Source: Octopus vulgaris (lineage: Eukaryota). From it: a stretch of 64,000 nucleotides of DNA. Position 1 is the first letter of the stretch, and every line of letters starts with the position of its first letter. The DNA lies in the NCBI GenBank assembly GCA_951406725.2, contig OX597825.1:13082001-13146000 (forward strand). Direction: 5' to 3'. The notes under the pieces were generated by a model. That model was not told where the DNA came from. It did no database searches and worked only from the letters and a program-made list of their open reading frames with translations. Of this stretch, positions 9,493 to 58,470 are shown one piece after another. The position numbers and the translations under genes are program-made.

Positions 9493-10125
9493 ATGCCATG
9501 TACAAAAGAAGACTTGGAACTGTTCGAATTTCAAAGAAGTCGTATTGTGAATCAATCTGAAGGTGAACTAAGTCAGCGTAAAATCGCAGCAAACCTTGTG
9601 ATCCCTCTTTCTACTGTTAATAGAGAGTGATCGTGCAATTCACCAAGGAGATGAAGGAGTCATCATCACCTCGTTCAGGTCGATCAGGGCCCTCTGGCAG
9701 GACCCTTCGCTTTGTTAAGAGAAGTGTAGAGGATAATCCTCGTTGCAAGGCCTCTGATACAGCAGAACAAGTTGATGTCAGTCCCAAAACAGCTGTCAGG
9801 TATCTCCACAAATTTGGTTACTATGACAGAGCAGCAAGAAAGAAGCCACTTCTTCGACCATCCAGTATCAAGCGTAGAAACGATTGGGCCAGTGAGATGG
9901 TGGAGACACCACTAACATTTTAGACCATATTCTCTGATGAGTCCAGATGTCCTGTAATTTGTGACAGTGGTCGAGTGTTGACCTGGAGACTCTGTGATCA
10001 GGAATTTGATGTGAAAAGAGTGCAGCCAACAATGAAACACAGCGGCTATTCTGTGATGGTCTGGAGAGCAATTTGGAGCAATGGTCTATCAGAGCTGGTG
10101 GTGTATGAGGGAAATACAAACTCAG
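9493..10125 (+). pseudogene. Tc1-family transposase pseudogene, N-terminal two thirds
   Basis: ATG at 9493. Paired-like HTH ([18 protein letters not shown]), RSGRS, ARKKPLL, IFSDESR and KHSGYSVMVW. Frameshift at ~9624 and stop at ~9921. Confidence 0.9.
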
Positions 10126-14151: not shown

Positions 14152-14914
14152 CTTTCTACTCTAGGCACAAGGCCGGTAAGATTTGGGGACTAGCAAGTCG
14201 ATTATATCGACCCCCAGTACGCAACTGGTACTTAATTTATCGACCCCGAACGGATGAAAGGCAAAGTCGAACTCGGCGGAATTTGAACTTGGAACATAAA
14301 GACAGACGAAATACCTATTCCTTTACTACCCCCACAAGGGGCTAAACACAGAGAGGACAAACAAGGACAGACAAACGGATTTAGTTGATTATATCGTCCC
14401 TAGTGCGTAACTGGTACTTATTTAATCGACCCCGAAAGGATGAAAGGCAAAGTCGACCTCGGCGGAATTTGAACTTAGAACGTAAAGACAGACGAAACAC
14501 CTATTTCTTTACAACACCCACAAGGGGATAAACACAGAGAGGACAAACAAGGACAGACAAACGGATTAAGTCGATTATATCGTCCCTAGTGCGTAACTGG
14601 TACTTATTTAATCGACCCCGAAAGGATGAAAGGCAAAGTCGACCTCGGCGGAATTTGAACTTAGAACGTAAAGACAGACGAAATACCTATTTCTTTACTA
14701 CCCCCACAAGGGGCTAAACACAGAGAGGCCAATCAAGGACAGACAAACGGATTAAGTCGATTATATCGTCCCTAGTGCGTAACTGGTACTTATTTAATCG
14801 ACCCCGAAAGGATGAAAGGCAAAGTCGACCTCGGCGGAATTTGAACTCAGAACGTATCCGCAGACGAAATACCGCTAAGCATTTCGCCTGGCGTGCTAAC
14901 GTTTCTGCCAGCTC
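14152..14914 (-). mobile_element. SINE family B tetrameric array (one head, three type-1-tail bodies, one type-2-tail body)
   Basis: ~186-bp units with junctions gaaa(t/c)ac|ctatt at ~14314, ~14500 and ~14686. Single head at 14870-14914. Confidence 0.92.
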
Positions 14915-36129: not shown

Positions 36130-36235
36130 TTTTACATTATTTATATTTGACGGATATTTATCCGCATCTTCTTTGTTGCTAACAACTAGCAAGATGAGGA
36201 AAAGATATCCGTCAAATGAAAATAATGTAAATAAT
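36130..36235. repeat. Short foldback inverted repeat
   Basis: tttacattattt-atatttgacggatat...catctt versus aagatg...atatccgtcaaat-gaaaataatgtaaa. Confidence 0.75.
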
Positions 36236-36244
36236 GTACATAAT

Positions 36245-36517
36245 TCCTCCTCATCATCATTGTTCGACCGTGGTTCGAGACAATGGAATTTACTATGTGA
36301 CTCCAGACTTCACGGTCCATAATGGCATTACGGAGGTCCTGTTGCTGGATGCCTGTATCCCTGGAGATTACATCAGGGTAAGAGAGTGTGCGCCCTCTGG
36401 TATCGCGAGCAGATGGCTTCCAGGGAAGAGTAGAAATTATCACGTTTTCAGCTCTACAACAATGTCCAGCAAACTGGACTCTTCTACCTTTCACAAGAGA
36501 TGATACAGGTGGTAATT
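36245..36517 (-). mobile_element. RTE-clade LINE 3' end with (ATG)n tail
   Basis: LPPVSSLVKGRRVQFAGHCCRAE..PWKP..RGR..DVISRDTG..LRNAIMDREVW. Confidence 0.85.
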
Positions 36518-37232
36518 TCCTCATCTCTTAAATATAGAACTACAGGAGTGGCTGTGTGGTAAGTAGCTTCTTACCAGACAGACGTGTTGTTTTTTGCTCC
36601 TGCAAATGTCACGTGTTTGAACGTGAAATGTTGAACTTTTGACTCGGTGACAGGTAAGACGTTCTGTATTTTTAGAAGCATAGTGAAGTTTATTGCTTGC
36701 TTAATGTTATTTAGCAGTTAACGTTATCTAGCATTAATATTTTTTTGCGGGTAATAGACTTCACTTTACTTCAGATATATTTCTCTGCCTGTTGTCGTGT
36801 CTAAGGTCTCACTCTTTAGTGAGAATTGTGCTTTTTGAGGAGGCGTAGCCCCTCCGCAAAAATTAATTTGTTTGCTTGTGTTTTACTACTTCGCAAGAAA
36901 ATTATAAAAATAAGCCACTATTGGATTACCTTTCGGACCCATTTTTGTGGAGGTTGTGTTGCAGTTGCGGCGTTCCAGGTTCAACCCAGGCCGGGAGTAC
37001 CGCAAGGCCAGAATATTTTTGCTGTGTTTTTTCTGTTTATTAACTTTCTTTTGAACTTCATTTAACCCCCCCCTTTTGTTTTTTTTTCTTTATTGCGACT
37101 TTCCGTTAATTTCTTCCCTTCTGTTGTGCTTTCTCCTTTTTGTTTTTTCAAAAATCTATCAAATTTTATTTAGAATTTTGAACTTTTTTCTTCCTGCTTT
37201 TGAGTTTAATTTGAATATATTTTTAAAAAAAC

Positions 37233-38477
37233 ATGGCAATGAAAAATAACAAAATTTTGGAGTGGGAAATCATACCACCCAAAAAGTGGTTAAAAGACCG
37301 TGAAGATAGGACGGTGGTGTTGAGAACCTACTCCAAGGCACTTGACACCATCGCCCTATTCGAAAAGACGGCAATTGAGGAGGAGTTGGAAGAGTATTTG
37401 CCAACAATTAAATTCATTTCCAGGGGTGTCGAATATGCAACGGTGTGGTTGCTATTTGACACCCCTGAAGAGGCTTGCATATTTGCTAGCAAACCCTTGG
37501 AGGGTAAGGAAATCTTATTCCTGCCCACGTACAGAAAAAAGAAATTGATGAAAGCTTGGATCTGCGGACTGCCACCCGACATAGAACCCGAGTGGATAGA
37601 GGAGACTATCCGCCGGGGTCTGGGTGACAGCGAAACTAAGCTCCTCAATGTAAAAGTTCTTCCTGCGGCTGCTTGGGTTGGGTCGAAAGCAATTTTGACT
37701 CTGTGGACACAATCAGCCAATCTGGTTCTTCCAGATTTTTTGAAAATGGCCGGGTGCAGGTACCCGGTGATGCTTGAGGGTCGCCCCCCTAAGTGTCATC
37801 GGTGCTTGGAGTCCGGCCACATAAAGAAGAACTGTCCTCGGGAACAAAATAGGATCCCGGAACAGTTAAGTAAAACCCCTCTAGAAGAGGGAACGATAAC
37901 GGCCGAGAAAGCAGAGGACTCCTCAAACAGAGGCCGAAAGAGGAAGGTGAGCAACAATGGGTGCTCACCAAAGGATAATAGGGATGAGGAGAGGAAGGCG
38001 AATCTTCCAGCCACGGAGGAGACGCACCCTCCCTCAGTTGAAAAGGGAAAAAAAAAGAAAAAGAGGAAGAAAAACGGGACATTACCGGCTGTCAGTGTAG
38101 CACCGGAATGTCGCGGAACTACGTCGGTTGGGGTTGTGCCACCGACAAGAGAAGGAATACCGTTGGCGGAAACTGTGCCGCCAACGAAAGAACTAAATGT
38201 GTTGGTCCTCTTCTATAGAGGAGGAGAAATTGAAAAAGTGATGGAAGAGCACTACAAGGGAGCACCTTTAGCCTTCACACAGGACCCCGAATGGCCTCCG
38301 CAGGTAGCTGTGGAGGCCGTGGCGTTCGACGTGACGCTAGGGCTAAAGGAGCTCAACGAAGATTATAACTTGGTCCCGGGCGACGCGAACTCGGAACTTG
38401 ACTACGTTCTGAGGGAGGCGTGGTTGATGGTGGAGGGCGCGGGCACAAGCTATTTCGAGGACGATATGTATTATTAG
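37233..38477 (+). CDS. Gag-like ORF1 nucleic-acid-binding protein with CCHC zinc knuckle (Tx1/L1-type), 414 aa
   Basis: Uninterrupted ORF. RRM-like WICGLPPDIEPEWI segment, EGRPPK-CHRCLESGHIKKNC (CX2CX4HX4C at 37794-37835), basic NLS-like KGKKKKKRKK and an acidic C-terminus. Confidence 0.88.
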   Translation: MAMKNNKILEWEIIPPKKWLKDREDRTVVLRTYSKALDTIALFEKTAIEEELEEYLPTIKFISRGVEYATVWLLFDTPEEACIFASKPLEGKEILFLPTYRKKKLMKAWICGLPPDIEPEWIEETIRRGLGDSETKLLNVKVLPAAAWVGSKAILTLWTQSANLVLPDFLKMAGCRYPVMLEGRPPKCHRCLESGHIKKNCPREQNRIPEQLSKTPLEEGTITAEKAEDSSNRGRKRKVSNNGCSPKDNRDEERKANLPATEETHPPSVEKGKKKKKRKKNGTLPAVSVAPECRGTTSVGVVPPTREGIPLAETVPPTKELNVLVLFYRGGEIEKVMEEHYKGAPLAFTQDPEWPPQVAVEAVAFDVTLGLKELNEDYNLVPGDANSELDYVLREAWLMVEGAGTSYFEDDMYY

Positions 38478-38600
38478 TAATGGACTTAAGTCCAAAAATT
38501 GAAAAATTGTAAGAGGATTAATACCTCGTTTTGTATTAATAATGGACTGCTAAGCCCAAAAATTGGGAAAAATTGTAAGAGGTTTTATACCTCGTTTTGT
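38478..38600 (+). repeat. ~62-bp tandem duplication right after the ORF1 stop
   Basis: taatggact..aag(t/c)ccaaaaattg..aaaaattgtaagagg..t.atacctcgttttgt occurs twice. Confidence 0.85.
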
Positions 38601-39701
38601 GTTTATCTTTTTAAAAAGAACAATGTTTTAGAGAAGCAAAAGTCGGCGGGCGCTTTCTGTCTTCTCCCATCCTTATCATCTTTCTTTCATTATCATTCAC
38701 TTCATTAATGTCCTCGTCCAGCCCGCAAAGCTAACTTAATCTGTGTACTGCCTTTATGGCAAATGTTTTGAAATAAAGTAGCTTGCTAACCAACCACATG
38801 GTTCCGGGTTCAGTCCCACTGTGTGGCATCTTGGGCAAGTGTCTTCTGCTATAGCCCCGGGCCGACCAATGCCTTGTGAGTGGATTTGGTAGACGGAAAT
38901 TGAAAGAAGCCTGTCGTATATATGTATATGTATATATATATGTATGTGTGTCTGTGCTTGTGTGTCTGTGTTTGTTCCCCTAGCATTGCTTGACAGGCGA
39001 TGCTGGTGTGTTTACGTCCCCGTCACTTAGTGAGTCGGCAAAAGAGACCGATAGAATAAGTACTGGGCTTACAAAGAATAAGTCCCGGGGTCGATTTGCT
39101 CGACTAAAGGCGGTGCTCCAGCATGGCCGCAGTCAAATGACTGAAACAAGTAAAAGAGTAAAAGAGTAAAAGAGTATTATATGTTGCTGTATACTCTACA
39201 AAGCTCTTTCATGAACTCTTAGGTTAAGCGTTGCTATACGTTACCTCCCTGGCCCCAAGTAGACAAAATGGAAAAGGTTTGCCTCGGAGGATGACTAGGG
39301 AGATGCGCTGAAACAGCCACTCTGACTTACTGACCCCGCATTTGCGGACAGCCATCTTTGTTCCGATAGTGGTTTAGCAGCGATGTGTTCCGGGGACCAA
39401 GAACACCGGTATACTCTTGTACAAGGTCGACCATAAACCTGTAGATCAACCGATACTGAGACAGCTTGCTCTTCTCAGCCTGACGAGCAGCGGAGCTTAG
39501 TTTTGTAGCTGACTGCAAGTGCAGGCCCAGTGAGTCACTGGAAATAACAGCCAAATCTCTCTCAATGTCACACGCTAATATGATATAAACGAGAGGACAC
39601 ATTGGATAAGATGGACACACACACTTATATATTCCCTATAAAAGAAATTTCTGTTTTTCTCACTCACCTTAATTTTATACTTTTCTCCCACTTCTCTCCC
39701 T

Positions 39702-57835: not shown

Positions 57836-58470
57836 TCCTTTTCCACTCTAGGCACAAGGCCCGACTTTTGGGGGAGGGAACCAGTCGATTACATCCACCC
57901 CAGTATGCAACTGGTATTTAATTTATCGACCCTGAAAGGATGAAAGGCATAGTCGACCTCGGCGTAATTTGAACTCAGAACGTAAAGACACGTAATACCG
58001 CTGAGCATTTTGCCCGGCGTCCTAACGTTTCTGCCACCTCGCCGCCTTCCTACACAGTATTATTCATTTCTGCTCTAGGCACAAGGCCCGAAATTTTTGG
58101 GGAGGGGACGAGTCAATTAGATCAACCGCAGTACGCAACTGGTACTTATTTTTTCGACCCTGAAAGGATGAAAGGCAAAGTCGACCTCGGCGCAATTTTA
58201 ACTCAGAACGTGACGGCAGATGAAATACATATTTCTTTACTACCCACAAGAGGCTAAACACAGAGAGGACAAACAACGACAGACAAACGGATTAAGTCGA
58301 TTACATCGACTCCAGTGCGTAACTGGTACTTAATTTATTGACCCGGAAAGGATGAAAATTAAAGTCGACCTCGGCGGAATTTGAACTCAGAACATGAAGA
58401 CAGACGAAATACAGCTACGCATTTCGCCCGGCGTGCTACCGATTCTTTACTACCCACAAGGGGCTAAACA
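57836..58470 (-). mobile_element. SINE family B cluster (monomer 57836-58049, dimer 58066-58445, extra tail stub)
   Basis: Two heads and three bodies. tac(g/a)cagtattat is repeated at the block boundaries. Confidence 0.9.

Follow-up and report, generated by a model that had tools for sequence, protein, structure and literature searches.

The 64,000-nucleotide stretch of the Octopus vulgaris genome considered here (GCA_951406725.2, contig OX597825.1, positions 13,082,001 to 13,146,000, forward strand; hereafter the window) contains an insertion of 2,206 nt, at window positions 36570-38775, that has one long open reading frame (ORF) and no reverse transcriptase (RT), which raises the question of what this insertion is and how it could have spread. 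A preliminary description of this DNA had proposed a non-LTR retroelement (one without long terminal repeats, LTRs) encoding only ORF1, i.e., a non-autonomous relative of long interspersed nuclear elements (LINEs). Both the occurrence of further copies and the homology of ORF1 supported this proposal. We found that the insertion is probably a full-length copy of a multi-copy, ORF1-only octopus non-LTR element, which likely borrows the endonuclease and RT of an L1-group LINE.

The ORF (37233-38477, plus strand) encodes 414 aa and is free of stops. No frame of that length occurred in 1,000 shuffles of the element, in which the longest frame was 228 aa. It was a clean CCHC ORF, as first described, and also the longest in the window (416 codons as a high-complexity stop-to-stop frame; the next had 215), and one of the 86 other window frames scanned, a Tc3 transposase fragment at 9624-9920, scored above a Pfam cut-off. 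The CCHC knuckle (C188-x2-C191-x4-H-x4-C201) matched Pfam zf-CCHC at E=0.008, slightly under the curated cut-off, and this was the sole Pfam match of the protein (hereafter P0001) at E<=10. An AlphaFold model built from a 38-sequence alignment showed two domains resembling RNA recognition motifs (RRMs), mostly with predicted local distance difference test (pLDDT) values of 80-96; the model was confident over residues ~11-210 and low thereafter. All 48 Foldseek matches at E<=0.001 were multi-RRM proteins. Also, the VIA fold search gave RRM matches at about 14-102 and about 100-185, the best single-domain match being the La RRM (Z 9.0, root mean square deviation 2.5, 82 aligned residues). A capsid fold was absent from the fold-search matches listed, in which RRMs cover residues 14-185 and the C-terminal 110 aa, of low confidence, were not folded alone. 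RRMs placed directly before a CCHC knuckle have been described as the defining trait of Type I LINE ORF1 proteins (PMC4120745, PMC5203782), and P0001 is predicted from the model to be such a protein, with two RRMs and a knuckle. This architecture fits the RNA chaperone suggested earlier, a role predicted from the fold.

A relative of this protein, P0024, led to contigs in bacterial assemblies that hold intact two-ORF elements and are evidently animal DNA filed under bacterial assemblies. These elements encode a 633-aa ORF1 and a 1,155-aa ORF2 with Exo_endo_phos, RVT_1 and zf-RVT domains, and among solved structures human L1 ORF2p was nearest to ORF2 (E=6e-74), with R2 at about 6e-27. P0001 aligned with the ORF1 of an intact two-ORF element (P0075) across both RRMs and the knuckle (BLASTP, 22% over 197 aa, E=4e-9), and profile probabilities against the ORF1 of two-ORF relatives were 99.96% and 98%, the profile giving 99.96% containing close kin of its target. 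In every ORF1 copy with a complete C-terminus and downstream DNA, an endonuclease followed within 100 nt (50 of 50 copies, from 13 contigs in 2 assemblies, mostly one tandem family). Because of this alignment and the endonuclease downstream in all 50 copies, P0001 is a true LINE ORF1 without its ORF2. The suggestion of a Tx1-derived element is borne out as far as the L1 group. Type I ORF1s have been linked to Tx1 (PMC5203782), which makes Tx1 membership plausible from the ORF1 type, and they have also been described in Jockey, L2 and CR1, so this type is not diagnostic for Tx1 (PMC4120745).

The two-ORF relatives had several features of their own. Twelve contigs titled as an Arenicella metagenome-assembled genome (MAG) (L002, L003, L006-L033; CAXXMW01...) were head-to-tail arrays of L1-group LINEs, with units of 6.4-6.8 kb that are intact and of animal type, i.e., host DNA binned into a MAG. 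Between units, identity fell to ~56% in the ORF1 core; in ORF2 it was 91-100% in intact units. A single decayed copy of the two-ORF LINE with a 14-bp duplication (L034:7669-13484) lies inside a 539-kb contig that belongs to another bacterial genome record and is likewise animal-like DNA. Two adjacent hairpins precede AATAAAG in the autonomous relatives (L002:7560-7605 and equivalents), and pairing in the second is kept with different sequences in five subfamilies; this double hairpin was not clearly present at the end of the window element.

Close homologues of ORF1 were found in cephalopods. A search of 1.84 billion representatives returned 56 relatives of P0001 at E<=0.001, and 12 of the 22 looked up carry names, all of them cephalopod (Octopus, Argonauta, Sepia/Acanthosepion). 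The closest, 63-64% identical, is a gene annotated in O. sinensis, for which RefSeq has three protein records. The relatives in O. sinensis comprise a truncated model of 281 aa and, within an unrelated integrase model, a piece of 46 aa. The latter (P0003), 85% identical to the N-terminus of ORF1 and spliced into the integrase-like model, is likely an annotation chimera over debris of transposable elements (TEs). The element also accounts for a set of "uncharacterized CCHC" gene models in octopus annotations, which are TE ORF1s. In a tree of 27 of the 39 core sequences (12 under 150 aa were excluded), P0001 and P0002 shared a long branch (99/99); most sequences around it were octopod, the two-ORF elements lay elsewhere, and support for the deep split was weak. 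No RT or endonuclease family was present in the ORF1 relatives scanned (overlapping sets of 29 and 24), and no longer relatives with fused ORF1 and ORF2 were found at 1,508-4,305 aa or 726-2,070 aa, which is weak evidence. Searches of metagenome, viral and genome contigs with P0001, and of viral contigs with the relative P0061, gave no related locus. Some candidates were rejected: an exact 20-nt match in metagenome contig L001 was due to chance, L004 and L005 matched through the knuckle alone, and the match of L035 spans 21 residues only. L004 and L005 are tandem fragments of a gypsy-type LTR element, on a contig titled as a Rubritalea MAG with animal-like DNA.

The stretch was present in 20 of 24 listed sequencing runs (10 studies), and four runs were compared on the basis of contigs only, whose depth is not copy number. 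The variants considered were the best-supported rows, 40 of 238 for substitutions and 12 of 34 for indels; of 2,549 loose ends, 24 were listed, and these were dominated by a short interspersed nuclear element (SINE). In run X1, a 135-nt contig at 36572-36706 had no differences and a depth of 1,903, and six diverged single contigs were listed in the element region at depths of 33-148. At 38486, 9 nt after the stop codon, an insertion variant was carried by single contigs in three runs at depths of 2,383, 2,286 and 305, and one contig bridged 38315-38597 with four substitutions and one gap. Depth did not step down after the stop; the first 250 nt had the lowest depth, and each of the four runs showed a rise over the last 190 nt. 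A shared tail or 5' truncation would be expected to give this profile. With regard to the ORF, 14 of 22 substitutions were synonymous, against 22-30% expected (p<=0.0013), which corresponds to an omega (dN/dS) of about 0.2. None of the 22 was a nonsense change, and none of the 10 indel sites in the element fell within the ORF, which makes up 56% of its length (p=0.00025). At residues 67, 83 and 101 (all non-synonymous) the window copy differs from nearly all contig depth, and it therefore carries some private changes. Because of the common 5' end, the variant junction of stop codon and 3' untranslated region (UTR) at depth in three runs, and the frame-sparing variation, the element is a multi-copy family with a conserved ORF1 rather than a one-off deletion. 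Other copies with the same ORF1-to-3' UTR junction, which the preliminary description had proposed to look for, are thus present in the run contigs. Its spread as a unit is seen in the target-site duplication, observed at the window copy only, and in the 5' and junction contigs of three runs.

No trace of ORF2 had been noted at this locus, and this held: tblastn of the relative's ORF2 against the window gave no match at E<=1, the UTR frame had no Pfam match, and just 298 nt remain after the ORF1 stop. In the autonomous relatives the terminus is (G)AATAAAG and poly(A) is absent, and the end of the window element is alike. Similarly, the single dispersed copy in L034 ends in GAAATAA, has no poly(A) and is flanked by its 14-bp duplication starting with AG. 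The pattern TGCCTT-N14-18-RAATAAAG had one match in the window, at the end of the element (0.01 expected), and was present in 25 of 31 related loci. One contig matched 38658-38780 alone; its upstream 141 bases were unrelated, and it may be a trace of the autonomous partner. From this contig and the rise in depth, the last 120-190 nt may be common to a more abundant or different element.

The boundaries of the element were given by its insertion site within a SINE. A perfect 9-bp duplication occupies both flanks: the 9-mer AAGTAGCTT at 36561-36569 and 38776-38784, placed by alignment with intact SINE copies, in which it occurs once. The empty site was 91-97% identical to five other SINE copies over ~153 nt, and this SINE recurs throughout the window, in which 10 heads were counted. 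Of the unit proposed earlier, 36577..38775, the flanking duplication and the right end stand, and the start moves 7 nt to the left. The start is most likely 36570, because the 17-bp duplication that a start at 36577 implies needs two differences within it, and because the deepest listed 5' contigs begin at 36571/36572 with 0-1 differences (runs X1, X8 and X14). The 17-bp reading, invited by the first seven bases of the element, which follow the left 9-mer and resemble a continuation of the SINE, was rejected on both grounds. The long 5' UTR and short 3' UTR of the preliminary description were borne out by the coordinates; its AATAAA is present at 38772-38777, with the correction that it extends into the right duplication and that a poly(A) tail is absent. 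The features are as follows.

36543..36560, plus strand: 5' head of the host SINE, left of the insertion, aligned to intact copies in the window; we take it to be a tRNA-like A-box region
36561..36569, plus strand: left target-site duplication, 9 bp, identical to 38776-38784
36570..37232, plus strand: 5' UTR, 663 nt, T-rich, placed from the sequence and contig starts
37233..38477, plus strand: ORF1, 414 aa, with predicted RRM-RRM-CCHC, a basic low-complexity linker and a C-terminal region without a recognised fold
38472..38600, plus strand: 66-bp tandem dimer running across the stop codon into the 3' UTR (Tandem Repeats Finder, 2.0 copies, 88% matches)
38478..38775, plus strand: 3' UTR, 298 nt, with depth up in each of the four runs over bins 38588-38763 and the single-contig match at 38658-38780
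38770..38778, plus strand: terminus GAAATAAAG, without poly(A), its last bases within the duplication; same end type in autonomous relatives
38776..38784, plus strand: right target-site duplication, 9 bp, identical to 36561-36569
38785..39170, plus strand: rest of the host SINE

LTRs are absent from the element, as are long terminal inverted repeats, and no terminal repeat exceeds the 9-bp duplication. The 5' UTR likely contains an internal promoter. For the surroundings of the element and the spacer of the relatives, Rfam gave nothing near gathering score, ARAGORN found zero tRNAs, and the last 189 nt folded no better than shuffles (z=0.15). Target-sequence preference is common in Tx1 elements. 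For the octopus element one insertion site is known; the contigs break off at its 5' boundary, and the upstream flank of one diverged copy is a different one. A splice-donor-like CAG/GTAAGA was observed at 36651-36659, ~85 nt into the 5' UTR and before a long pyrimidine tract, with GTAAGT at a similar place in relatives, and a 5' UTR intron is possible.

From what is known of LINEs, mobilisation in trans by the ORF2 of a partner LINE is likely. The element would be transcribed from its 5' UTR, and the ORF1 protein would bind its own RNA in cis. The L1-group ORF2 of the partner, acting in trans, would recognise the last 120-190 nt and carry out target-primed reverse transcription at a nick. Pairing of the terminal AAG with the target, a match of 2-3 bases, is proposed for this step because there is no poly(A). 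With regard to origin, a two-ORF ancestor may have lost ORF2, followed by fast divergence of ORF1. A different course of events, which we think improbable, is that an orphan ORF1 lineage outlived its parent LINE, with no autonomous element of similar ORF1 left, uses an unrelated partner through a captured 120-190-nt tail, and prefers sites resembling its own 5' end. Within 36550-36583, 12 of the first 14 nt of the element match the reverse complement of the SINE head immediately upstream of the duplication; among 9,115 window positions sampled, 12 match equally well, and the distant two-ORF relatives insert head-to-tail beside their own 5' ends. This match concerns one site and is partly explained by a small inverted repeat of the SINE head. 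If true, such a lineage with targets like its 5' end would point to target choice assisted by RNA ends.

The ORF1-only family mobilised by a partner LINE has to be weighed against other explanations. One is a passive deletion derivative, with a two-ORF family of nearly identical ORF1 persisting in the genome and the purifying signal inherited from it. The high-depth variant contigs just after the stop in three runs, the lack of a depth step-down there and the 298-nt UTR without an ORF2 remnant argue against this explanation and make it unlikely, although the relatives are two-ORF in 50 of 50 cases and loose ends at the stop codon were not among the 24 of 2,549 listed. Alternatively, P0001 could belong to a domesticated, ORF1-derived host gene, similar to L1TD1 or ZCCHC3-like proteins, whose mRNA gave rise to retrocopies. 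The purifying signal in the ORF would suit a host gene, as would the long branch of P0001 and P0002, the 12 residues before RRM1 (43-294 in relatives) and language-model neighbours that include ZCCHC3-domain clusters (score 0.91). The closest relative is indeed an annotated O. sinensis gene (63-64% identity), but the O. sinensis relatives look like scattered TE debris. In addition, a host gene would be single-copy, whereas the run contigs contain many copies. Many of their 5' ends are near-identical, several subfamilies have diverged, and depth increases towards the 3' end, which has no poly(A), like that of the autonomous LINE relatives. We consider this explanation very unlikely.

A further possibility, suggested by the resemblance of the knuckle to retroviral nucleocapsid, is that only gag remains here of an LTR or tyrosine-recombinase retroelement. 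Such an element would be at odds with the lack of long terminal repeats or long terminal inverted repeats, with the tandem RRMs matched by the N-terminal half, and with homologues that precede an ORF2 carrying apurinic endonuclease-like (APE) and RT domains. Grouping with LTR gag had been named at the outset as an outcome that would overturn the LINE interpretation; the protein instead aligned with ORF1 of intact L1-group LINEs, and this possibility, already largely refuted, deserves almost no credence.

Several observations weigh against our preferred interpretation of an ORF1-only family with an L1-group partner. ORF1 identity to the two-ORF relatives is only 22-28%, and these occupy a different tree branch; the 50 ORF1 copies followed by an endonuclease are not independent, 49 being from one assembly. 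The C-terminal 110 aa of P0001 match nothing, including the C-terminal domains of the relatives, and had no usable structure-atlas match. At the 3' end, the TGCCTT-N14-18-RAATAAAG pattern was chosen after seeing both ends and is absent in 6 of 31 related loci. In the window, the end of the element escaped a profile built on the 3' UTRs of the relatives, and UTR alignments between the element and the relatives scored no better than shuffles. An autonomous partner from the octopus genome was not found, in searches short of the whole genome. Besides, the selection estimate rests on the best-supported variant rows, and it is possible that the genome has a minority of ORF2-bearing copies with near-identical ORF1.

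Having homology to LINE ORF1, no ORF2 and evidence of spread as a unit, the octopus element is an ORF1-present non-autonomous LINE. Three such elements have been named: HeT-A of Drosophila (Jockey), HAL1 of mammals (L1) and Ag-Sponge of Anopheles (CR1) (Kojima 2018, PMC5786205). HAL1 is similar in being non-autonomous, derived from the L1 group and encoding ORF1 alone, which is kept intact (PMC5753468, PMC3627910); its ORF1 is described as kept for tens of millions of years (PMC3627910). In contrast, ORF1 of mammalian L1 is Type II (coiled coil-RRM-C-terminal domain, Transposase_22) and that of octopus Type I (RRM-RRM-CCHC), and the octopus element lacks a poly(A) tail and lives in a mollusc. 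With this host, its origin is therefore independent of HAL1, and, lacking the Type II (Transposase_22) ORF1 by its predicted fold, it is not HAL1 proper. HeT-A is without pol and thought to borrow it from TART or TAHRE (PMC5537684), and Jockey-lineage ORF1s are also described as Type I (PMC4120745). However, the parent clades of HeT-A and Ag-Sponge are Jockey and CR1, not the L1 group, and one knuckle is present in the octopus ORF1 versus the three usual in Jockey ORF1. HeT-A also targets telomeres and has poly(A) and a long 3' UTR, whereas the octopus copy is interspersed and has a short 3' UTR and a 9-bp duplication. The two-ORF LINE (L002-L034), probably of Tx1 type, shares with the octopus element a homologous RRM-RRM-CCHC core, the (G)AATAAAG end without poly(A) and a short duplication starting with AG. 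It differs in its intact 1,155-aa ORF2, a longer ORF1 with another C-terminal domain, a 3' UTR of 650-715 nt and head-to-tail arrays; because ORF1 identity is only 22-28%, it is not the actual partner, and it illustrates what is usual in the clade.

The octopus element thus adds a fourth, independent ORF1-only case, with an L1-group parent, a different ORF1 architecture and a mollusc host, to a class and a mechanism that are already known. It supports the idea that a borrowed ORF2 works better on an RNA that comes with its own ORF1, and, as its copies are young and the frame is intact, the need for production of ORF1 in cis could be tested in it. The suggestion that the family may be undescribed in cephalopods agreed with our full-text literature searches, in which we found no earlier description of a cephalopod or Tx1-derived ORF1-only element, although repeat libraries in supplements, Repbase or Dfam may have the family. 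A paper on an octopus LINE describes an RTE element (PMC9115989), and two mollusc surveys report L1-Tx1 elements (PMC10294476, PMC11203168).

Other repeats in the window were also observed. An octopus repeat with a 186-bp unit (58077-58110 and 14162-14188, both minus strand) contains a tail-like stretch for which nhmmer gave a match, at E=0.003 for the best site, to the 3' end of the autonomous relatives from the L1 group, and this match may point to the partner LINE of that repeat. The host SINE is adjoined on its left by a decayed 112-codon frame in a highly repeated stretch (36186-36524, minus strand), without a Pfam match and presumably resembling the end of an RTE-type LINE. Finally, 9624-9920 (plus strand) is a fragment of a Tc1/mariner-type transposase, with the Tc3 helix-turn-helix domain HTH_Tnp_Tc3_2 at E=6.5e-11.

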